DNA from: Chloropicon primus | Taxonomy: Eukaryota | Length of the DNA: 64,000 nt | Direction: 5' to 3' | Assembly (NCBI GenBank): GCA_023205875.1 | Contig: CP060769.1 | Location: 62,001-126,000 of the forward strand | Part shown: in pieces, positions 1-62,935 of the stretch | Layout: each line of letters begins with the position of its first letter | How positions within the stretch are numbered: position 1 is the stretch's first letter | Notes under the pieces: generated by a model | What the model was told of the DNA's origin: nothing | The model's input: only the letters and a program-made list of their open reading frames with translations | Databases searched by the model: none | Translations under genes and position numbers: made by a program

Positions 1-66
1 TCGATCATTTTTCGATTTGATAGTTGTATTATGAGACCTACGCGCTACCGACTGCGCCACGAAGAC
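1..66 (-). tRNA. tRNA-Met(CAT) elongator, 5' exon plus part of the intron; runs off the window edge
   Basis: Bases 1-120 are identical to 8913-9032, which contain the 5' exon and most of the intron of the complete tRNA-Met at 8871-8978. Confidence 0.8.
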
Positions 67-120
67 GTTTTCCTTGTTGTTTCAAGGGTGTGCACGAGTA
101 GGAAATGACATTTTGGACAA
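1..120. repeat. Direct repeat of at least 120 bp, copy of 8913-9032 (tRNA-Met 5' part plus 54 bp of upstream flank)
   Basis: Exact match at offset 8912; the copies diverge after ...ttttggacaa. Confidence 0.97.
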
Positions 121-384
121 CTTTGCGGAGACCTTGAAGGCAGACCTGGAGGAGACAAAGAGAGCCAAGGCCAATGAGGCTTCCGCCAAGTGCAACAGAA
201 ACGGAGGCGCGCCGCTTGTGGTGCGAGGGATGCTGAAGCTCGTCCGCGTCGCCGTCGCTGGCGTCCTACCGTTGTTTCTGGCAAAAGAAGCGTTTCGAGT
301 GAGCCAAAACTCGGGTTCGTAGCACTTTGTTCTACTAGGTGACGAGGCCGACGCGCAACGCGTTGTGTCTGAGTGGCTCACTTG

Positions 385-750
385 AGTAGCTCTAGCTCTT
401 GATCATCCTCATCCTTTTTCTTGGCAATCCCTCGTCTTGTTTGCTCCCTCCGTATCAATCTGCTGCTGCCAACGAAGAACCTGAACTGCTCCAGTGGGAG
501 AGGCAACAAGACCTGGAAGAAGGAAGCCGCGGAGATGTGCCCGAGCTGCCAGCTTCGACCCGTGCTTGGTCTACCTCGAGCCAGAATCACCCGTTCTGGC
601 CTGCTTCTGTGCTGGTCATAGCATAGTAGCTCTAGCTCTTGATCATCCTCATCCTTTTTCTTGGCAATCCCTCGTCTTGTTTGCTCCCTCCCTCTGCCCT
701 GTCCCCTCAGCAAGACGGGGACCGGCAATCCCTCGTCTTGTTTGCTCCCT
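385..750. repeat. 67-bp direct repeat (385-451, 625-691) with a partial third copy (~724-750)
   Basis: agtagctctagctcttgatcatcctc...tttgctccctcc recurs with 240-bp spacing. Confidence 0.9.
450..564. repeat. 115-bp segment with an inverted copy at 2582-2696
   Basis: ccgtatcaatc...gacccgtg is the reverse complement of cacgggtc...gatacgg. Confidence 0.95.
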
Positions 751-881
751 CGCCTCGCCTTGCCTCGCCTCGCCTTTGCCTCCCAAGTCCAGTTTTTCCC
801 TGCTGAAAGCCGTTTCGTTCTCCCCCCTTCCAATCAAAATCCAATTCATGATGAACAATTCATGAGCTGGGCGAAGACTTT

Positions 882-1262
882 GTGCATGAGATGCGATCGA
901 TGCTGGCCAAGGAGGAGGAAGACTTTTACTCGAGCTGCGTGGCCTGCGTGGACCAGGCCCTCGCCCTCTACGAGTCGAGGGAGTGGGACCATTCGAGAAC
1001 GGATGCTTTCCTGAGGACGATCGAGAGGGGCGTGAGGAGGAGGACGACGGAGCTCGCTGTCGCAGCGCAAGTGAAGGAGGTCTCGGTGGAGGCGGAGGCG
1101 GACAATGCCCTGTGGTTCCCGAAGAAGGGCGATAGGGTCAAGCTGAAGAGGCTTGGCGGGACGAAGGCCACCGTCGTCGGCTTCAACAAGACGAATCAGA
1201 CGGTCACCGTCCGGAAGGGAACGATAACAATGACGTGCACGCTGGGTGATCTCAGCAGATGA
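882..1262 (+). pseudogene. C-terminal fragment resembling the MutS2 KOW/SH3-like region
   Basis: WFPKKGDRVKLKRLGGTKATVV...VTVRKGTITM resembles the MutS2 KOW motif. Host-like codon usage, but no ATPase region upstream. Confidence 0.45.
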
Positions 1263-1307
1263 AGAAGCCGGTGCGATGATGGATGTTGGATGATGGATCC
1301 TCTCTCT

Positions 1308-1548
1308 CTCCCCTCCCTCCTCTGTCTGATCAAAAGAAGCCTGATCATCTGTCTCTCTACTAAAGGGTAACTGAAGCAAAAGAAGCCAAATCATCATCCA
1401 AGCAAAGTAACCGATGCATCTCCTCCCTCCTCTCCCTCCTCTGTCTGATCCAAAGAAGCCTGATCATCATCCAAGCAAAGTAACCGATGCATCTCCTCCC
1501 TCCTCTCCCTCCTCTCCCTCTGTCTGATCCAAAGAAGCCTGATCATCT
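1308..1548. repeat. Nested short tandem duplications
   Basis: ctctgtctgatc(c/a)aaagaagcctgatcatc occurs three times and catccaagcaaagtaaccgatgcatctcctcc twice. Confidence 0.85.
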
Positions 1549-1708
1549 TAAGAGAGAGAGAGAGAGAAGGAGGGAGAAGGGAGGACGAGGACGAGGACGA
1601 GGGTGGCGGAGGGTTCGACAAAAGGAAGCGTCTCATTACGAGCTTTCCGTGGACCACTCGATTGAAGGATTTGGTGTCCTGTGGAGGATTGGAACCCACG
1701 GGAGATGA

Positions 1709-2076
1709 TTGGAGGAAGTGGAAGATGAAGAAGACGCAGTGGTGAGGATGTCGCTGGCTGCTGAGGAGATCTTGGAGCTGAGCGAGCAAGTGTTGCGAAG
1801 CTCGAACAAGGTGAAAGGAATCGAAGCGGAGATGGTCACAGCCATTGCTCTCATCGAAAGCAGTGGAAACGTCAAGGCTTATCGGTACGAGGAGCACCTA
1901 GGAGAAGCTTCTTCTGGATTAACCCAACTGCTGCAAAGTACGGCGAAGGTAAATGCGATTCTTTCGCTCTTTGATCTCGACGTCATGCGCATCTCCTCTC
2001 TCCTCTCTCTCTCTCTCTTTCTCTCTTCTGCCTCTTTTTCTCACACACACACACTTCTGCCTGACCCTCTGCCTGA

Positions 2077-2110
<34 letters not shown>

Positions 2111-2581
2111 GATGCATGGACACTTGTCTTGTCTTCTCCTTGCCGCTTGCTGCTTGATGGCTTGGGTCGCACGCACGCGTAACGCACGGCGGACTGGACA
2201 AATGGCTCCTCTCCTTCCCTTTTTGGTTTTACTTCCTCCACTTCTCTTGCTCAGTGGCTAGCCGAGGACCTTTCCTATGATGAGTACGAGTTGGACCTCT
2301 ACCAGCCTGCATCATCCCTGTACTTCTGTGCCGCTTATCTTTGCTGGCTCAAAACATACAAGAGCGTTACCCGGTCGGATGAGTTCGTCGTTCGCGGGTA
2401 TAACGGTAAGCTTTGCCCTTGTGCATCTTCTTGCAGATGGATCTGGATGGAGCTCTCATTGCTTCCATTGATTTAGGACACCTCCTCACCCATCACTGCG
2501 ACCTCATGCCTCTTCCTCTCTTCCTTTGGAGCAGGTGGACCCAACGGCGTGAACCTTGAGGCAACGGTGCCGTACTCATGA
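1709..2581 (+). pseudogene. SLT/lysozyme-like transglycosylase gene with introns 1949-2254 and 2406-2534; appears truncated
   Basis: Spliced frame reads AIALIESSG...GLTQLLQSTAK/WLAEDL...FCAAYLCWL...RGYN/GGPNG with GT-AG introns. It stops at PYS* exactly where the inverted 115-bp copy begins. Confidence 0.7.
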
Positions 2582-3157
2582 CACGGGTCGAAGCTGGCAG
2601 CTCGGGCACATCTCCGCGGCTTCCTTCTTCCAGGTCTTGTTGCCTCTCCCACTGGAGCAGTTCAGGTTCTTCGTTGGCAGCAGCAGATTGATACGGCCCG
2701 AGCTCACGATCACGAAGTGAATCAAGTGTTGATGATGGTCCGGGGCGCTGAGGCTGGTCAAGAGTTTGGTGGACCCATGGGGTGGCAGCTCCGAGTTGTG
2801 TTGGCTCTCGTGAAGGCGCTGCAACTTTCTCCTCGCGGCGGACTATGCGTGAGTGAGGTCATGATACGTCCCGATTGATTGAGACGCCGCCACAGATGTG
2901 GAATTGGACTTTGGACAACCCGTTTGTTTCTGCGTGAGACGCTGAGACTGAGACGCCCGTTCGGTGTGTGTGTGTGTGTGTGTGTGTGTTTGAGACCGCG
3001 TCTGTGGAAGGATGAGTCCATGAGTCCATGAAAAGGAAAAAGGCAAGCGTGTGCCGTCTCCTCCTCATACTCCTCATACTCCTCATACTCCTTTGTGTCC
3101 AATCGGGAAGCCCTCGCCGTCATCACACGTCCATCGAGGGAAGGATTCTCGTCTCCA

Positions 3158-3253
3158 TCAGGGTACGATCAGGTAGGCCTTCACGAGGACTCGAGGGACG
3201 CATGCAGCATCGTGACACCCTTTGGACGGTACCGACCCTTGATCCTTCCTCAA
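3158..3253 (+). mobile_element. Ty3/Gypsy-type reverse transcriptase fragment
   Basis: SGYDQVGLHEDSRDACSIVTPFGRYRPLILPQ fits the GYxQIxLxxxxxxxTAFxTPxGxYxxxxMPxG RT motif. Confidence 0.65.
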
Positions 3254-3439
3254 GAGACAGTCCAGCAATATTCTCGATCATCCTCGATCAGAGTACCACC
3301 AAAGGCACGTTAATGAATTGTCTTTCTTGTTGTTTTTCTTGTTGTGTTGTGTCCTGTTTTGTGATGTGCCCTTCTCTCTGGCCTCTCTGGCCTCTCTGGC
3401 CTCTCTCTCTCCCTTGAGATGACCACCCCTTTGGCGGCC

Positions 3440-3857
3440 AGCAGGGCTTCAAAATGTAACGGACGCCGAGTGATCAGGAAGAAGACGGCTCGCATGCTTT
3501 TGACGTTGAGGCACTATGCGCTCAGAACGTACTTGGCTTCCAAGGTGCTCTTGTGCGGCAAGGAGCTGGCGATCGTGACGGAGGAGTACACCTCCAAGAC
3601 CTGTGGCAGGTGCGGACACATCAAGGAGAACCTGGGTGGAGCAAAGGTTTGCAAGTGCCAGGAGTGTGGCTTCAAGTGCGATCGGGATGCGAACGGGGCA
3701 CGCAACATCCTTCTCAAGCACTTGTGTGAACCACAAGAAGTGCAACTCCTCAGGGTTGCACACGCGTTTGTTAGTACGAGCTGCCCTTGCTTGCTAAGGG
3801 TGGAATGGTCCTTTCGAGAAACTCAAACTGAAACGACCTTTGCACAAAACTAACGGG
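3440..3857 (+). mobile_element. Fanzor/TnpB (Fanzor2/IS607-like) 3' relic: zinc ribbon plus RuvC-III, followed by a putative omega-RNA
   Basis: KKTARMLLTLRHY...IVTEEYTSKTCGRCG...CQECG..DRDANGARNI. The RuvC-I and RuvC-II regions are absent. Confidence 0.85.
3721..3857 (+). ncRNA. Putative Fanzor omega-RNA scaffold
   Basis: Consecutive stems cttgtg/cacaag, gtgcaac/gttgcac, ccctt/aaggg and ggtc.tttc/gaaa.gacc lie directly 3' of the RuvC-III coding region. Confidence 0.5.
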
Positions 3858-4650
3858 TAGAGATCCGGCCGTGGGAGGAGGACATAGACCGCAGCAAATT
3901 GCCTGCGAGCTGAACCATACCAGCCATACCAGCTGCTGCTTCACTATGCCCCATATTGCTCTCCACTCCAGACATGTGGACAGGGAAGTCCCGTTTGGTG
4001 GCCTCGGAGAGTAACACAGCAGATGCCGCACCGACCTCAATGGGGCCACCAAGAGGAGTACCTGTACCGTGCATCTGCAAGACCTGTGCACTCCAGGCAT
4101 CAAGGTCTGCCGAGTGCAAGCTCATACGCATCACTTGCTGTTGAGAGGGTCCGTGCGGTGCGGTCAAAGCACTGGATCGCCCATCTTGGTTCACAGCAGT
4201 GCCACGTAGCATCACCGTATCTTGTTTGGAACCATCTTCAAGAGGACCGAGAACGCAAGCGATGCATATTGTGTATATAGTCCCTTCGAGACGTCGCCAA
4301 GAACAAGGCTCATGTAGGACATGTGTGCTGCGACAAGAGAGGATGAACAAGCCGTATCAACAGCTGCACAAGCTCCTTGCAAACCATATGTGAAGGACAG
4401 TCGCCCTGCAGAAACACCCAAAGAACCTGACGTAACCGCATGAGCCTCAGACTTATGGCCATAACCAGCATAGATATTGCTGTATTCAACATGCTGAGTG
4501 AGTGTACATGCCCACCATCACACCCATCCTCTGTTTCTGATGCATCCAACTCGAGGAAGAATCGGATTCCATGCTGTGCAGAGCTTCATACGATACCTCG
4601 AGAAGAAGACGTTGGTGAGGATCCATCCAACACGCCTCAGAGCGAGATGC
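3858..4650 (-). pseudogene. Type I polyketide synthase ketosynthase-domain fragment, frameshifted and internally deleted
   Basis: MDPHQRLLLE, VDTACSSSL, NQDGRSSALTAPHGPSQ, HGTGT and GHSEAAAG motifs occur in order but in different frames. Confidence 0.9.
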
Positions 4651-5503
4651 CTTGCTCTCGAGCCTCCGTCTTCACCTTTGGCTTGGGGAACGGTGCATCC
4701 GCCGCACACCTTGCACCTATGAGTTTGTCACGGACATGAACTGCGAGTATGGCAAGGCTGGTGGCATGGTATCGCAGCAGGAGTGCAGGGATGGGTGCGA
4801 CGGCCTCACGCGAATCGGATCTTTGTTCACACGCCCGGAATATCGACGGACGAGAGCTTAATCTAATCTGAAAAACGAGACTATCGTACAATCGAAGGAC
4901 CCATAATTCCCCTCCCTGGAAAAGAAACGTCTTTCGTAGTCCCAGCAGATCGAGAGAGAGAGAGGCCACACCCAGCTCAGCAAGACTTTATCACATGCTG
5001 CGTGCCAAGGTCGCGCCTTGCCTCTCCACCGGCGTGAAGGTGTGACCCCTCTCCCTCTCCCCCTCTCCCCCTCTCCCCCTCCCGCCCTTCCCGCCCGATC
5101 GTCCGTTGTTCGCAACGCCACCCCACAAGTCACAAGCCTGTTCCTGTTCCTGTTGGTCTTCGTTCTCCCTCCACCTGGGCTCCTCGATCGATCGATCGAT
5201 GCCAGGTGCCACCTCTTCTTGCTGCTGCTGCTGCTGCTGGAATTGCGAGATGCGTCCAGCGGAGACACTCTGCAAGTCCCTCACTGAATCTTGTCTCTCC
5301 CCGAGTTTCGTTTGTTGATGCGAAGTTCCATGATCGTGGAAGGAAGGTCACCTGAACGACGTTTTTAGGATGGAACGAACGAACGAACGAACGATGTGCC
5401 GGCGGTCAACGGAGACATACATAGTGTGGTGGAGGAGGATAGAATATTTCAGCTTTAGGATTGCTTTTTGGGGATTAGGATTAGGATAGTCTTTAGGATC
5501 GGC

Positions 5504-8458
5504 TTAGGAGTCCTGTAGCATCATGTTGACGAGCATTGGATGCGGGGTCACTACCTCTTTGGCCTTTCTGTTCTCGGACTTCTGCCGGCCGGAGCCAACG
5601 TTCACGCCGCCTCCTTCTGCGTTCTCCTTGTACCCCTTGCCGATTTTGCCATGTTCATAGCTGCAGGACAAGCACCTCAAGCCCTTTGAACCGTTGGTTG
5701 GGATCAAGGGGATCGAGGGGATCTTCTCGATCAAGGCTTCCTCGGACTCAGGTTTCTTTGTACACGGAACACAAAACCAGAAGCCAATCGTGTTCTTCAG
5801 TTGTGTCATGCCAATTTCCTTGCTCATGTCCCAAAGCTCCTTCTTGTCGACAGACTCCGTCGCTTTCAAGAAGCATCCGAACGAGCACCAGTGGTTAAAC
5901 TCACTTTTGAAGATGAAGCGGTGGCAGTACCAGCACCAGTTCGAGAGGAGGCAAGTGGGATTGTGCCCACCTCGATCACGTTCCTCCCCAGGAACCGGGG
6001 TCAGAGCTCCTGTTTTGACCAAGGGGCACTCAGGGCGACGAAAAGCATCACAGCAGATGCAGCGCAGGGTTTGAGTACCGTCTGTAGTAGGAAGTCGAGG
6101 AAACTCCTTCATCGGCTTCCTTGCTTTGGCCTTCCTCTTCCCTTTCGTGTTGGTCTTGGCCTGTGTCTTCCTTGTCGTACCAGTGCTCAAGGGGCTGCTG
6201 CTGCAACGTTCACAGGGACATGCAGCGGCATCAAATTTCCGAAGCTCTCTCTCCCTCTCCCCGCCGTCCTCGGCGTCGCTGTCCACCAGAATGCAAGGAC
6301 GCTTCCTCTTGCACATGTCACAACCACAAATGCATCGAGTATGTGCTGGAGCGGTGTTCGCGGTGCCTGTTGTCCTGGACGACTTGCGAGAGCATTTATC
6401 AGCGCAGGAGCATTCGAAGAAATCTTTTGAGTCACAGAGATCGCGGTTTCTGGGAAACATTCATTCTCAAACACGACATCGACATGTTCTCCCTTTAGTG
6501 CATCCGCAAAGTACTCAAAGACTCTGCTCAATGCGTCTTCATCCAAGCCGTGTCCATCACGGTTTTCAAACAACTCGTCCCTCACGGAGTGAACGTGGCA
6601 GTATTGCCTGTAGGTCTCCAGGAACTCCATGTGCTCCTCGCGAAGAATGATGTCGTAGTTCGCTTCCGTGATGGAACAAGCAGCGACGAGCACACGAACT
6701 GTGGGTTGGTTCTTCCATGCGCGGACGAGATCACTCGCCCGTTGCTCCACAAAGCGCTTTCCAAGAAGATACTCCTCATCTCCAGCGAGAACCTGGGCTA
6801 CGGCCTCTTGAACGTGTCTCTCCTCGGTGACGACGGCATCCACTTCTGTCAAGCACGCAACCGTTGCTATGTTCGCCTTACAGCACCTTTCCAAGAGCGT
6901 CCCGAGCGTCGCAAGCTCCCTTGTAAGCCGATCTGCACGGGTGCAGAGTAGAACGCCCCCTGCGTATTTGCCCTCGTCGCAGACCTTCTTCACCCATTCT
7001 TGGACGGCAGCCTCCTCCGAGGTCGAGCCTCCACACTTCTCTGCAAAGGTCCCAATTGTGATTTCAATCACCGGCAGCTTCCCGCTTAGCGCAACATCCT
7101 TCTGAAGGTTGTCGCGCACCTTGAGGAGGACGTGGAGGAGTAGGCACCGTTGGACATATATCGAAGTAGACTTGGCGACGTCAGTTCCAGGCGACGTACG
7201 GGCAATACCTACGAGGAGAAGGGGTTTCCCGTGCTTCTGCTCCCCGGCTTCTCCAGATTCTCCAGCTTGTGCCTCAGGACGTGCTCGACGTGTTCGACGA
7301 GGAGACAAAGTTCCTCAGAAGTGTGTTGGCCCGATGCTACAGAACAACGGGTGGCGCCGGACTTGAGCATGCAGTGCGACGCCGAGTACACGGCGTGCCC
7401 GTCCGAGGTGCTTGCAGCCTTGCTCATGTACTTTTGAGCTCCTCTTTCTTTTCCTCCCCAATCAAAGCTGCTGCATGGGACGTCGGGATACACGCCAGTA
7501 TAGAGGCCTGCCCTGCGCGCTCAGCAAGGTAGTCGAGGTCCTCGTCAGCTTGTGACCGTCTCGACAATCGCGACAAGGCAGCTACAAGAAGCGCGCAAGG
7601 CTCGCCCTTCTCCTTCGCAAGGGCAAGAGCTTTCGTAAGAACTTTGCGGTCCTTGAGGCATCGCGAGCGGCTGGCGGTCCCAAGCTCCACGAAACGAAAT
7701 GCTTTCACCTGTTTAGGAAGATCTTTGCCGAGCAACGCGCTTGAGATCGTGGCCGCCTGACCAGCGAGCTTGTTCCCAAGCCCCTCCTGCGCAAGGGACT
7801 CGCGGAGGAAGACGATGCAGTGGGTCAGTTCTTTCAAGCCCTCAACGCGCTCCAGGTGGACTCCGCCACGGCCTCGGACCACGCGGACCAGGGTCAGCTC
7901 CTCAGGCTCGCGAGTTCGCTCCGCCCGTGTACCCTCGCGTGCAAGGGTGGGCCGCGCGCCAGCTGATTCGTCGTCTGCGAAGCGAAGAGAGGCAATAAGT
8001 CCATCCGCATTGAGAAGCGTCGTCGGATCCACGTTCTCCTCGAAGGCGGCCATCTCCCGCTCCCTATGAGGTCCCGCGGAGATCGCCAGGGCCACTGTGC
8101 AAGCGTTGGTGTCCAGGCTTGTTCCGAGTGCCACCGCGCCGCACGGCTGCCCGCTGCCCTGCAAGTGGGTGAAGACAGAGACATTGGCACCACAATCCTT
8201 GGGCGCCACCCGCCATCCTTGGGCGCCACCCCCTGGAGAACCGCGGCCGGGGTGGCGCCACCAGCCCCTTCTTCACATGACGTCCCAGTATTCGTCAGTC
8301 TCCTCTTCTTCGTCGGCAACCAGCGGCCGAAGTATTCCAGGAGGTAACTCATCGCTTTCTCTCTGGTCGTGGTCTTCTCGTCCCCACTCGTCGGCCGCCT
8401 CGTTCGCGGCTCTGGCGTTACGGCGGCTCTCTTTCTCTCTCCAGCTCCGCCAGGTCAC
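5504..8458 (-). CDS. Long interrupted ORF: two serine recombinase catalytic domains plus a Cys-rich (multi-zinc-finger-like) C-terminus
   Basis: Domain 1 is IVFLRES..Q..FVELGTAS..DRKVL..LLVAALSRLSR (~7820-7490). Domain 2 is VGIARTS..SIYVQ..VLLCTRADRLTR (~7220-6855). The frames join by -1 shifts at homopolymers near 7433, 7244 and 6454. Confidence 0.7.
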
Positions 8459-8687
8459 ACACCTCGTCGGCCGCCTCGTTCGCGGCTCTGGCGTTACGGC
8501 GGCTCTCTTTCTCTCTCCAGCTCCGCCAGGTCACACACCTCCTCGCCGTCCTCCTCGCCGTCCTCCTCGCCGTCCTCCTCCGCCGTTACGATCTCGTTGT
8601 GATCCTTGTATAACTAACGTCAGTCGCCGTCGTCGTCCTCGCCGTCCTCCGCCGTTACGATCTCGTTGTGACCCTTGTATAACTAAC
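8387..8687. repeat. 76-bp tandem duplication, 12-bp repeats and a 38-bp direct repeat (8581-8618, 8650-8687)
   Basis: Read directly from the sequence. Confidence 0.9.
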
Positions 8688-8870
8688 TTCTCTCACAGAA
8701 CCCTTGTCTCACGGAGCAAGAGGTAAGGCGGCTGTTGTTTCGCCGCGGTGTTGTTTCGACACCGGATGTGATCCCCGTACTAGAGGTCGGAAGTGTATCA
8801 CGGGTCGGAGTTTCCCGTGTCATTTTGAACCATGGTTGGAGAGCAACTTGTGTTCGTTGCTGCCGAGATG

Positions 8871-8978
8871 TGCCTTCGGCGGGGATCGAACCCGCGACCT
8901 TAGGATGACCCTTCGATCATTTTTCGATTTGATAGTTGTATTATGAGACCTACGCGCTACCGACTGCGCCACGAAGAC
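8871..8978 (-). tRNA. tRNA-Met(CAT) elongator with a 35-nt intron (8907-8941)
   Basis: Acceptor stem GTCTTCG/CGAAGGC+A, D-arm TGGCGCAGTCGGTAGCGC, anticodon loop CTCATA|A with the intron at 37/38, T-loop GTTCGATC, and the U31:U39 pair typical of elongator Met. Confidence 0.95.
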
Positions 8979-9127
8979 GTTTTCCTTGTTGTTTCAAGGG
9001 TGTGCACGAGTAGGAAATGACATTTTGGACAATTTATCCGACTTGTCTCGTCGGAGATCGACCGCGAAGCTCGCAGACGCCGCGCTGGCGGCTCGGCAAA
9101 GGTAAGGTCGGTCGAAGCGCGCTCACG

Positions 9128-11395
9128 ATGGCTTCGAGCGGCAGCTTGGTCGTCGCCCTGGGTTCCGTCCTGCTTCGGCGAAGGGCACTGGCGTGGAGCC
9201 ACCCTCTGGGATTAAACCTCCTCTCCTCGCACCACCACCACCACCAGTTGTACTCCTCGTCCTCGTCGTCCTCGTCGTCCTCGTCGTCGTCGTCGTCGTC
9301 GTCGTTGCGTAACATTGGGATCTCTGCGCACATCGACAGCGGGAAGACGACGCTGACGGAGAGGATCCTGTTCTACAGCGGGAGGATCAAGGACATTCAC
9401 GAGGTGAGGGGGAAGGACGGGGTGGGGGCGAAGATGGACTCGATGGAGCTGGAGAGGGAGAAGGGGATCACGATCCAGAGCGCGGCGACGTACTGCAGCT
9501 GGGGGGAGAACCAGATCAACATCATTGACACGCCGGGGCACGTGGACTTCACCGTGGAGGTGGAGCGAGCTCTCCGCGTCCTCGACGGGGCCGTCCTGGT
9601 GCTGTGCTCCGTCGGCGGGGTCCAGTCCCAGTCCATCACCGTGGACAGGCAGATGAAGAGGTACAGCGTGCCGAGGCTCGCGTTCATCAACAAGCTGGAC
9701 AGGTCCGGGGCCAACCCGGACAAGGTCATGGACCAGGTGAGGGACAAGCTGCGGCTGAACTGCGCGGCGGTCCAGGTCCCGATCGGGCTGGAGGACCAGC
9801 ACGAGGGCGTGGTGGACCTGGTGAACATGAAGTCGTACAGGTTCGAGGGGGAGAAGGGCGTGGACGTGGTGGAGAGCTCAGAGGTCCCGGAGGACCTGGC
9901 GGACAAGGTCTCGGAGGCGAGGGCCGCCCTGGTGGAGGCCCTCGCGGAGGTGGACGACGAGATCGGGGAGCTCTTCCTGGAGGACGTGCAGCCCACGGAG
10001 GACCAGATCAAGCAAGCGATCAGGAGGACCACCATCGCCAACCAGTTCGTCCCCGTGTTCATGGGGAGCGCCTACAAGAACAAGGGGGTGCAGAGGCTCC
10101 TCGACGGGGTCGTGGAGTACCTCCCCGCCCCCCACGAGGTGAGGAACATGGCCCTGGACGTCTCCAAGGCCGACGACGGGGAGGAGACGCCCGTCGAGCT
10201 GAACTCGGAGGACCCCTCCCTCCCCCTGGTCGCCATGGCCTTCAAGCTGGAGGAGGGGAGGTTCGGGCAGCTGACGTACCTCCGGGTGTACCAGGGCAAG
10301 CTGAAGAAGGGGGACTTCATCTACAACATCAACAACGGCAAGAAGCTCAAGGTGCCGAGGCTGGTCAGGATGCACTCCAACGAGCTGGAGGACATCACCC
10401 AGGCCCCGGCCGGGGAGATCGTGGCCATGTTCGGCGTGGAGTGCGCCTCGGGGGACACGTTCACGGACGGCAAGCAGCAGGTCGCGCTGAGCTCTATGCA
10501 CGTCGCGGACCCCGTCATGTCCCTCGCCATCACCCCCGTCAGCAGGGACGTCGGCACGCAGTTCAGCAAGGCCCTGAGCCGCTTCCAGAGGGAGGACCCC
10601 ACCCTGAGGGTCCACTTTGACTCGGAGACGGGGGAGACCATCATCAGCGGGATGGGGGAGCTCCACCTGGAGATCTACGTGGAGAGGATGAAGAGGGAGT
10701 ACAAGGTGGAGACGAGGACGGGCAAGCCCCGCGTCAACTTCAGGGAGACGGTCACCTCCAGGGCCAAGTTCGACTACACGCACAAGAAGCAGTCGGGAGG
10801 CCAGGGCCAGTTCGGCCGGGTCGTCGGCTACATCGAGCCCATCCCGGACTCCAAGGAGGTCGAGTTCGTCAACAACCTCGTGGGGAACAACATCCCGCCG
10901 GGTTTCGTGCCCCACATCGAGAAGGGGTTCAGGGAGGCCTGCAACGCGGGCTCCCTCATCGGCCACCCGGTGGAGGGTGTGAGGATCGTGATCGAGGACG
11001 GGGCGGCCCACGCCGTGGACTCGAGCGAGATGGCCTTCAAGCTCTGCTCCCTGTACGCCTTCAGGCAGGCGTACATGGAGTGCCAGCCCAGGATCCTGGA
11101 GCCCGTGATGAAGTGCGAGGTCAGGGCGCCCACCGAGTACCAGGGAGACGTCATCGGAGGCCTGAACCGAAAGAAGGGGGTCATCAACGACAACGTGCAG
11201 GAGCTGGACGAGGCCGTGATCGAGGCCCTCGTCCCCCTGAACAACATGTTCGGCTACTCCACGGAGCTCAGGAGCATCACCCAGGGCAAGGGCGAGTTCA
11301 CCATGGAGTACTCGAACCACGCCATCGTTTCCATGGACGTGCAGCAGGAGCTCACCAAGTCGTACGAGAAGAAGAGGAGCTCCGGAAACAAGTAA
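9128..11395 (+). CDS. GFM1: Mitochondrial elongation factor G (EF-G1)
   Basis: [32 protein letters not shown] and KKQSGG motifs, preceded by a presequence-like N-terminus. Confidence 0.97.
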
Positions 11396-61179: not shown

Positions 61180-62856
61180 TCACCGGTCCCCGCTCAAAGT
61201 CAGTTTCATCTGGGAGGCGAACAAGAAAGTCGCCGCGTTCACGTCGAGACAGGTAGTGGCATTGCGGCTGACAGGCGAGTAGATCAAGTTCTTCACGGGC
61301 GTGTAGTCGTTGCGTTGTCTTTCGAGCTTCTTCGCAAAGTCGTGCTGAAGCATGCTGCTAGGCGTCGTGTAGCTCCTCGTGCTCCTCTTCAAAAACTCGC
61401 TCGCTGGCGTCAGGGACGACCCTCTCGACTCCCCGATGCTTCGCCAAACCTTCTTTTGCGTCCTGTTCCTCAGCCTTTGGACGCTTTTGCGAACAGCTGG
61501 CGTGGTTTGGCACTGGCTTGCTGCCGGCGCTGACCCCCCCTCCCCGGTGATCTCGCTGTCCTCCATCTCCAGCAGCGACTGGACTGCGACTGGACTGACT
61601 CCCGCACTGATTGCCACGGAAGACGACACGTACCTCCCCCTGCTCTGCAAGTACGTGATGGCGCGACTGCAGATCGTAGTCAGAGCTTCCTCGTTGACCT
61701 TCTGCCCGCACAACTCGCAGGCAAGGGAACCGATTGTCGGTGGGTCCATCACCGAGACGGGCGACATCTTGGAGACCAACTTGAGGTCCTCCCCCACTCC
61801 TTGGGCTCCTCCGCCCGCGTCCCTCGACGACGGATCAGCAGCAGCGGCACCCTCTGCGGCACCCTCGGCCCCTTCTTCTTGCTCCTGACAAGGGTGGCTC
61901 GCGATATCTTCGGCTCCCACGGGGAAGGACAGCTTGCTCCTCACTTCCCTCCTCATTCGACTCGACTTTGACTCGGCTGACTGGGATGCAGAGGCGTTTT
62001 CGTCATTCGCACCGCACGACCCAGCTTCTTCCGCGCTCCGAAACCCGACTTGGTCGGCTTTAGCACCCACGGGCCGCAGTGGCAGACCTTCCCTCATCGG
62101 CGAGGGCTCCGGCGGTGGGCTAGGCCTCATTACTCCCCCTGGCATCCTCCTCCTCGGCGTCTCGTAGTACGCCTTGGCGTTCTTGTCCTGAACCTGATTC
62201 TTCGTCCTGAGAACTCGGAGCCTCCTGACACGCATGGCAGGGGACGGCTGGTGCGACACACTCCGCACGAAGCAGTCTCCCTTCTTGGGGCTCGTGCTCG
62301 GGGGCCTCACCGCCTCCTCCACCACCGAGGCCTTGCGCTCCTCGAAGTGCGTGAACAGCCCTGCGAGTGGGAAAGCGGAACAGAGGAGGAAAATGAAACG
62401 TGCAGAGGTCAGCGGATAGGCCAGCGGACGCGGTGATACCATGGCTCGGAACTTACCGTGCTTGTTGTCTCTAATGATCTCTGGACTGATGAAGGAGAGC
62501 TTGCTGCGAGTTTGCTTCCGGCCAGAAACCACCCTGGACGATGCCTTGAAGTTGTTCTTCACGATCTGAGCTTGAGGAGTCTTCGGACTTCTCGGAATCT
62601 CCCTCTTGGGCAACGCGGGAAGGCTCGAAGGATCCCAAGATGCCATCTTGGAGGCAGTACCAGTACAAGTACCACCGTGAAGTTGTTGCTGCTGCTTGCG
62701 TTGTTGTCGTGTGGAGGTGGAGTCCTCCTCATCCGTCGCGGTGGTGCAATTCCCTCCGATGGTGTCCATGGAGCTTTGTGCGGCGAGCTGCCTCAACCAT
62801 GGAGAATTGGTTTCCATCCTCGTTCTCCTCGTCGTGTTGCTCTGTTGGTCTCTCAT
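61180..62856 (-). CDS. Hypothetical protein with a probable in-frame intron at 62361-62456
   Basis: Long ORF containing a 96-bp gtaagt...ttcccactcgcag segment. Confidence 0.65.
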   Translation of the reverse strand: MRDQQSNTTRRTRMETNSPWLRQLAAQSSMDTIGGNCTTATDEEDSTSTRQQRKQQQQLHGGTCTGTASKMASWDPSSLPALPKREIPRSPKTPQAQIVKNNFKASSRVVSGRKQTRSKLSFISPEIIRDNKHGKFRAMVSPRPLAYPLTSARFIFLLCSAFPLAGLFTHFEERKASVVEEAVRPPSTSPKKGDCFVRSVSHQPSPAMRVRRLRVLRTKNQVQDKNAKAYYETPRRRMPGGVMRPSPPPEPSPMREGLPLRPVGAKADQVGFRSAEEAGSCGANDENASASQSAESKSSRMRREVRSKLSFPVGAEDIASHPCQEQEEGAEGAAEGAAAADPSSRDAGGGAQGVGEDLKLVSKMSPVSVMDPPTIGSLACELCGQKVNEEALTTICSRAITYLQSRGRYVSSSVAISAGVSPVAVQSLLEMEDSEITGEGGSAPAASQCQTTPAVRKSVQRLRNRTQKKVWRSIGESRGSSLTPASEFLKRSTRSYTTPSSMLQHDFAKKLERQRNDYTPVKNLIYSPVSRNATTCLDVNAATFLFASQMKLTLSGDR

Positions 62857-62889: not shown

Positions 62890-62912
62890 ACCTAAAACCC
62901 TAAAAACCCTAA
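62890..62912. promoter_or_regulatory. Telo-box-like AAACCCTA motifs in a divergent promoter region
   Basis: cctaaaaccctaaaaaccctaa upstream of RRP40. Confidence 0.4.
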
Positions 62913-62935
62913 TAGTCAATGTCAAAGGAGGAAGG

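Follow-up and report, generated by a model that had tools for sequence, protein, structure and literature searches.

A two-domain serine recombinase in a dispersed gene family of Chloropicon primus, and the ~3.4-kb element that it may mobilize

What does a protein with two serine-recombinase domains do in the nuclear genome of a eukaryote? The question is raised by a minus-strand gene in a 64,000-nucleotide (nt) stretch of DNA from Chloropicon primus, a very small marine green alga (contig CP060769.1 of assembly GCA_023205875.1, forward-strand positions 62,001–126,000), here called 'the window' and used for all coordinates below. A preliminary description, made without database searches, had proposed a 'pre-dimerised' recombinase with a zinc-finger tail, lying next to a tRNA gene and perhaps defining an undescribed class of eukaryotic integrative element. 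Here, we report an undescribed protein architecture in a multi-copy eukaryotic family; that much of the proposal stands, whereas tRNA-targeted integration is not supported. We favour, with somewhat more confidence than doubt, the reading that the gene product would act as transposase for a eukaryotic DNA element of ~3.4 kb, which would move by serine chemistry. The parts of the gene and of the element are as follows (aa, amino acids; ORF, open reading frame).

5357–8721, minus strand: putative element of ~3.4 kb, with its lower end at 5357 and a provisional upper end at 8721
5504–8352, minus strand: single, intronless recombinase ORF (950 aa in intact paralogues), placed by tblastn of one of these, P0012
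7380–7819, minus strand: serine-recombinase domain 1 (aa ~179–325), with F182, R184, S186, E223, R236, S261, R262 and R265
7222–7379, minus strand: interdomain linker of ~50 aa, shared by two distant relatives (P0021 and P0022)
6721–7221, minus strand: serine-recombinase domain 2 (aa 379–545), with I384, R386, S388, Q402, E439, D475, R476 and R479
6770–7209, minus strand: 440-bp stretch (domain 2 core), absent from a deletion derivative with the joint 6769–7210
5507–6424, minus strand: Cys-rich tail (aa ~645–950), with 25 Cys and several CxxC pairs
5362–5510, plus strand: cluster of five TTAGGAT direct repeats just inside the lower end, candidate recombinase-binding motifs
8387–8690, strand unspecified: tandem repeats that precede the ORF (two 76-nt units and two 67-nt units)

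Both domains are by sequence serine-recombinase catalytic domains within one eukaryotic nuclear protein. Their motifs and serine codons lie where the preliminary description had placed them: Ser186 (codon TCC, 7798–7796) in IVFLRES and Ser388 (TCG, 7194–7192) in VGIARTS. The profile PF00239 matches the intact protein P0012 in two stretches with 41 bits, above the curated cut-off of 23.3; with each frame alone, it gives 27.8 bits (E 3.1e-6) for domain 2 and 18.4 bits (E 0.0023, below the cut-off) for domain 1. A custom hidden Markov model of 91 bacterial serine-recombinase domains (61 large, 16 small, 11 IS607, and 3 other) scores domain 2 at 28.3 bits (E 2.2e-9) and domain 1, aligned from its first motif to SRLSR, at 14.4 bits (E 6.9e-5); none of 1000 shuffled sequences reached the score of either domain. 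The hhalign result, listed for domain 1, has a probability of 93.5 (E 2e-7), and resolvase clusters make up 29 of the 30 matches listed in an Atlas feature search with aa 170–640 (best score 0.92). A PDB sequence search found no relative. Domain 1 aligned directly to domain 2 gave no match, and the pair may stem either from an internal duplication or from two genes that fused.

Tn3 resolvase requires Y6, R8, S10, D36, R68, and R71 (PMC2794168). The equivalents of R8, S10, R68, and R71 are kept twice in the Chloropicon protein, as R184, S186, R262, and R265 and as R386, S388, R476, and R479. A fold of domain 1, predicted from an alignment of five family sequences that included no known recombinase, shows the resolvase order of strands and helices (predicted local distance difference test, pLDDT, 58.7; predicted template modelling score 0.61). 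In a Foldseek search of the PDB with this model, TP901-1 integrase and Sin fill the first three places (E 0.01, probability 0.95–0.98, none at E<=0.001). In VIA, six of the eight top rows are serine recombinases, with Sin at Z 8.0 and a root-mean-square deviation of 3.0 over 87 residues. The whole protein, folded from one sequence, reaches a pLDDT of 33.

The remaining parts of the protein are less familiar. The C-terminal part is rich in cysteine, as had been described (25 Cys per 310 aa), and would be a putative zinc-binding DNA-recognition part. Its proposed TRASH/MYM character survives by eye, in a CxxC-x12-CSxxC pattern, and not as a family assignment, since the tail has no Pfam match at E<=5 and no usable Atlas match. 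One metagenomic protein, P0019, is 53% identical to the tail. Another relative, P0017 (metagenomic, 56% identical), carries a different N-terminal extension of 180 aa without a family match, which could be a DNA-binding domain serving domain 1.

Is the gene intact? The preliminary description had extended it to 8458, but the reading frame starts at 8352, and the gene runs to 5504. In the window, the frame is interrupted four times, near 8231, 7431, 7241, and 6424, with one base lost each time, and the first motif set, the second motif set, and the Cys-rich tail lie in three different minus-strand frames. P0012 (950 aa) and P0013 (949 aa) are uninterrupted from MSYLL to the C-terminus. P0012 is identical to the window translation (tblastn) at 266 of 266 residues (aa 42–307) and 274 of 274 (aa 371–644). 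All four losses fall at homopolymers of at least four bases, although such runs account for 3.7% of the gene. We compared contigs from four of the 21 sequencing runs listed for the window's words, X1, X2, and X3 among them; runs X8–X17, outside this set, hold 0.05–0.42 of the words. The runs may be RNA, for which reason contig depth was not taken as a measure of copy number, and they may come from other strains. In each of the four, the contigs have a single additional base at every break site. P0004, a database model, shows frame changes where the window does.

Because intact paralogues of 949–950 aa exist and four runs carry the missing bases, the four frameshifts are most likely assembly errors. 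A true pseudogene is unlikely: in spite of four frameshifts, all of them at homopolymers, 540 of 540 core residues are identical to those of P0012, which is not typical of pseudogene decay. Introns behind the frame changes are ruled out, the contigs reading through with one extra base and P0012 and P0013 being continuous. A real lesion is a less probable alternative, in view of window-specific variants near 5650–5693 that are missing from the runs. Runs X1 and X3 contain GT..AG spliced joints in a neighbouring gene, and both cover the recombinase ORF, which is likely to be transcribed; that these two runs are RNA is a tool's guess. The GC content at third codon positions (GC3) of the recombinase gene is 0.62–0.67 versus 0.97 in the adjacent elongation factor G gene, and codon use would by this single comparison be foreign.

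The gene is not alone. In a domain-2-region search among longer proteins, five of 7995 candidates matched, all named Chloropicon primus; their clusters list 15 proteins, six of which hold both complete motif sets. With adjacent locus tags merged, the 13 gene models of one of the two annotated C. primus strains fall into 9 loci on 6 chromosomes, and the 15 of the other strain into 11 loci on 9 chromosomes (Supplement S1, PMC12301720). In the same supplement, the family comprises two orthogroups listed as C. primus-specific and absent from the C. roscoffensis orthogroups, and 27 of 28 family entries are annotated as hypothetical protein (PMC12301720). UniRef labels some copies as resolvase-domain-containing. 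The expectation that this is no ordinary single-copy host gene is thus borne out.

Full-length copies are 93–97% identical. Set against P0012, three others show no difference in the 501 positions compared for domain 2, 15 differences in 465 for domain 1, 24 in 298 for the N-terminus, and 51 in 930 for the tail, counts that are not independent of one another. Four further proteins (P0006, P0008, P0009, and P0031), encoded at three loci that lie on two chromosomes, share the same shifted-frame stop just before the first motif of domain 2, matching the 440-nt joint seen in X2 and X3. Such spread of a derivative after its deletion is typical of a non-autonomous element; segmental duplication could be an alternative source of the dispersed copies. 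Taken together, dispersed near-identical copies and deletion derivatives give the family the appearance of active DNA transposons and not of a single-copy host gene. Two other C. primus records, P0032 and P0024, are decayed family fragments, one gene-called in fusion with ferrochelatase and one consisting of the tail end.

Beyond the species, phmmer with P0012 against 1.84 billion representatives gave eight matches at E<=0.001: two C. primus proteins, three metagenomic fragments (53–78% identical), and P0020, P0021, and P0022 (33–40%). The metagenomic proteins P0021 and P0022 are 33–37% identical to P0012 and 61% to each other, and both show the same order of domain 1 (LRTS, SRATR), linker, and opening motif of domain 2 (IGRTSP). 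The alignment of P0012 with P0021 spans 201 residues, from domain 1 to the start of domain 2, at 31% identity. After IGRTSP, the two relatives turn into low-complexity sequence or end, and the remainder of domain 2 lies outside the visible part. P0020 covers no more than the second half of domain 1. Word- and pattern-based searches, weak at such distance, confirmed no relative in viral contigs (four scans), phages, plasmids, Joint Genome Institute metagenome contigs, or prokaryote genome contigs. None was found in 903 bacterial genomes of three phyla, the best match (E 6.5e-4) being to the Cys-rich tail and containing stops. Domain 2 alone was sought among proteins of 99–315 aa (0 of 163 candidates), and a bacterial motif scan gave two clear recombinases among 120 loci.

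Does the gene belong to a unit with ends of its own? The lower boundary is sharp. At this end, 5357, a contig of X3 departs from the window sequence and X1 has a joint to other DNA, the DNA being different in each. At the upper end, 8721, one X2 contig (depth 12.9) departs. No terminal inverted repeat (TIR) was found between the two end regions, the upper of which is provisional. Of the seven TTAGGAT copies in the window, five lie within 147 nt, and the other two are in the remaining 63.9 kb; the motif is also present in tRNA-Met. It resembles the C. primus telomere repeat, (TT)TTTAGG (PMC12301720), and three telomere-like CCTAAA units occur in intergenic DNA at 62891–62913.

One X1 contig (depth 23.4) has the joint 3490/5357, between the lower end of the element and an opposite-strand fragment of a Fanzor gene, and at 3495 this contig has the same Fanzor allele as the window. 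The joint is an inversion or an insertion into Fanzor, possibly the work of the recombinase. In one contig, 36 nt of the Fanzor fragment are fused to the element end in the same orientation. Just outside the upper end, hairpins followed by CTAG lie at 8746–8783 (fold z-scores −2.4 and −3.4 for 8722–8870), in an arrangement that we take to resemble a Helitron 3′ end.

How might such a protein move DNA? In the serine-recombinase synapse, four catalytic subunits act on two DNAs, and after cleavage one half rotates by 180 degrees relative to the other (PMC11607074). By the logic of the products, each rotating half holds one half-site of each DNA, and the two subunits of one site therefore lie on opposite sides of the rotating interface. 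The 'pre-dimerised' geometry, a linked dimer on one site, would conflict with this scheme and is doubtful, because the 50-residue linker would tie both rotating halves together. We infer that a chain bridging two DNAs fits better, because domains bound to separate DNAs would turn as a unit and because bridging would solve target capture, the difficult step for serine transposases. Two protein chains would supply the four active sites. Each would probably bridge two DNAs, with the invariant domain 2 and the tail on the element end, where the tail would bind the repeated motifs, and with domain 1 on the partner DNA. The linked domains would turn together during subunit rotation as the DNA is cut, rotated, and rejoined. 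Excision and insertion may be IS607-like, without inverted repeats and with little target specificity, and copies without domain 2 would be moved in trans.

Several observations weigh against a self-mobilizing transposase. The equivalents of Y6 and D36 are substituted in both domains (F182 and E223; I384 and E439), and domain 2 is without an arginine equivalent to R236. The domain-1 model is modest (pLDDT 58.7), its best VIA score, Z 8.0, being shared with the GTPase HflXr, and P0020 as aligned is missing the serine motif. The upper end is marked by a single contig; the flanks of other copies are readable for a few dozen bases at most, with no empty target site among them. Judged by tag position, eight loci have a counterpart in the other strain. 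The four without one may be no more than unclustered gene models; they do not prove polymorphism, because the other strain has spare tags there. Gene conversion could have caused the low divergence of domain 2. Finally, one annotated copy adjoins a polyketide synthase, as in the window, and the surroundings in the window are a patchwork of duplicated gene pieces, so that some copies may stem from segmental duplication.

The best-surviving alternative builds on those last points. The recombinase gene would be a passenger or a domesticated host gene, copied by segmental duplication or inside a Helitron-like or TIR-bearing Fanzor element, with its own activity irrelevant to its spread. The region is indeed duplicated in tandem and contains pieces of MutS2-like, polyketide-synthase, and Fanzor genes, the recombinase lies beside a polyketide synthase at another locus too, and hairpins with CTAG follow at 8746–8783. 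Additionally, eukaryotic IS607-like genes are often segmentally duplicated or domesticated (PMC3673617). A passenger, however, would hardly be expected where two runs depart at the same base, 5357, into different DNA, where a derivative lacking domain 2 has itself dispersed, where the family is limited to one of the two species compared, and where catalytic residues are retained; we regard this account as unlikely.

The second alternative, an integrative element inserting just downstream of tRNA genes, requires the neighbourhood to be described. Its features are as follows.

8871–8978, minus strand: host tRNA-Met(CAT), identified with Rfam, with a 35-nt intron (8907–8941) and its 3′ end 150 nt from 8721
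1–123, minus strand: tRNA-Met region once more, truncated by the window edge and 99% identical to 8913–9035; part of a tandem segmental duplication
3462–3862, plus strand: Fanzor/TnpB 3′ fragment (PF07282, E 1e-18), facing the recombinase gene and belonging to a separate element family
3853–4517, minus strand: polyketide-synthase ketosynthase fragment, downstream of the element

The adjacency to a tRNA gene claimed in the preliminary description is real, and the 3′ end of tRNA-Met is 150 nt from the upper end. In the X2 contig that departs at 8721, 14 letters of different sequence lead into the 3′ portion of a tRNA with another acceptor stem; the end motif TTAGGAT occurs in a tRNA; and the genome has few tRNA genes, which makes two tRNA-adjacent cases suggestive, the second being this one low-depth contig. 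The distances differ, however (about 6 versus 150 nt), and protein accession gaps allow one non-protein gene only between two chromosome-5 loci that are 431 tags apart. No tRNA-derived direct repeat brackets the 3.4-kb unit, and none lies at 5357; the repeat that does exist comprises whole tRNA genes 8.9 kb apart. In record 9 of X2, the left tRNA copy continues with 8782–8912, so that the duplicated unit is 254 bp long and holds the whole gene with both flanks, unlike the core of an attachment (att) site, and it is a segmental duplication and not an att pair. Targeting of tRNA genes is, on balance, quite improbable.

The left 254-bp copy is preceded by a second copy of the sequence ending at 4350. 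In three runs, 4350 is joined to 8782 via a short A run, giving a left unit without 4351–8781, the stretch that holds the recombinase element and part of the polyketide-synthase piece. This joint was considered as an empty site and ruled out, since the ketosynthase match crosses 4350; it is a deletion derived from the tandem duplication. The tRNA-Met with its intron was missed by ARAGORN under bacterial settings and found by Rfam. In inverted orientation, 8770–8780 matches the end of the T-arm of the other tRNA in the X2 contig.

Between the tRNA copies, 124–5356 is a patchwork of MutS2-like, SLT-domain, Fanzor, and ketosynthase pieces. The MutS2-like piece is the 3′ part of a gene (855–1262); one 3-kb contig matches 864–1419 and then diverges. 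The SLT-domain gene has two spliced introns (1946–2253 and 2404–2534). A 122-nt inverted repeat (443–564 and 2582–2703, 98% complementary) flanks the MutS2-like and SLT pieces, with joints between its arms in three runs. On the other side, a mitochondrial-type elongation factor G gene, recognized by sequence motifs, occupies 9014–11395, and with it ordinary host genes resume.

A viral origin, with the gene as the remnant of an endogenous giant virus or polinton-like virus in which a resolvase gene was duplicated internally and then spread passively, is very improbable: the gene is intronless with low GC3, and when domain 1 is compared with viral structures, resolvases of pithovirus and other giant viruses take ranks 3, 4, and 6 (E 0.002–0.003), but phage integrases do equally well in that comparison, no viral gene was seen beside the recombinase gene in the window, and the scans of viral contigs and phages mentioned above gave no relative.

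We return, therefore, to the transposase reading and to its wider form, which we put forward tentatively, as possible and a little short of probable: Chloropicon and other marine plankton would harbour a new superfamily of DNA transposons of eukaryotes, in which a single-chain serine recombinase with two active sites would pre-build half a synapse, one domain on the element end and the other capturing target DNA, possibly beside tRNA genes. If true, eukaryotes would have a first serine-recombinase element that is not IS607, and its enzyme would be an asymmetric recombinase of natural origin. The classification of eukaryotic elements would gain a transposase type through this second, independent lineage, in which the catalytic domain is doubled. 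Such a protein would also provide a natural test of subunit rotation, by revealing which two of the four subunits tolerate a covalent tie. Its two differing active sites, which could be mutated singly, would appeal to anyone designing asymmetric recombinases from an enzyme already functional in a nucleus.

How does the protein compare with known systems? The literature search, which left most subscription papers and Repbase beyond its reach, found no natural protein with two resolvase domains. The words 'recombinase' and 'resolvase' do not occur in the main text of the two C. primus genome papers, nor for this family in the supplement files covered.

The Fanzor elements of C. primus are described as non-autonomous; they carry inverted repeats and are flanked by a target duplication of 5 nt (PMC10711439; bioRxiv 2023.08.09.552727), and the autonomous partner of its Fanzor2* elements was not found (bioRxiv 2023.08.09.552727). 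They share a genome with the recombinase family, one fragment lies 1.5 kb away, and one contig joins the element end to such a fragment. The inverted repeats and 5-nt target duplication of Fanzor2* elements point to a DDE-type enzyme and not to a serine recombinase.

Small resolvases and invertases (Tn3, gamma-delta, and Sin) share the catalytic fold and motifs, Sin being the top VIA match for domain 1. These prokaryotic proteins have one catalytic domain followed by a C-terminal helix-turn-helix (HTH), whereas the Chloropicon protein has two domains, a poor match to their long helix-E motif, and no HTH detected at E<=1–2 in its 950 aa. Large serine recombinases (TP901-1, Bxb1, PhiC31, and TnpX) likewise have a catalytic domain followed by a long, Cys-containing C-terminal part, and TP901-1 is the top Foldseek match. 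They carry PF07508, whereas the Chloropicon protein matches only PF00239 at E<=2 and has two catalytic domains and no att pair found.

The closest parallel in eukaryotes is IS607 TnpA, which has a serine catalytic domain and is mobile or multi-copy in eukaryotes (PMC6188088, PMC3673617, and PMC2715888). It also works without terminal inverted repeats and binds short direct-repeat motifs near an end (PMC6188088), to which the motif cluster at the lower end here may correspond. A GG crossover core and the lack of a target duplication are further marks of the IS607 family. IS607-derived serine recombinases account for all 80 eukaryotic sequences reported from 14 species among 430 genomes (PMC3673617), and Lachancea (Saccharomyces) kluyveri has six single-domain genes of this origin (PMC2715888). 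TnpA, however, has ~200–250 aa, an N-terminal MerR-like HTH, and one catalytic domain, in contrast to the 950 aa, two domains, and Cys-rich C-terminus described here. The tnpB gene usually follows tnpA, whereas the Chloropicon locus has a Fanzor 3′ fragment only, facing the gene 1.5 kb past the element end. The IS607 profile NF033518 has no match in the protein, and an IS607 sub-profile, small and of cyanobacterial sequences only, gives it its lowest score, a negative one. As the preliminary description had implied, the Chloropicon recombinase stands outside IS607, sharing with it a serine catalytic domain and perhaps the layout of an element end, and differing from it in length, in domain number, and in the part predicted to recognize DNA.

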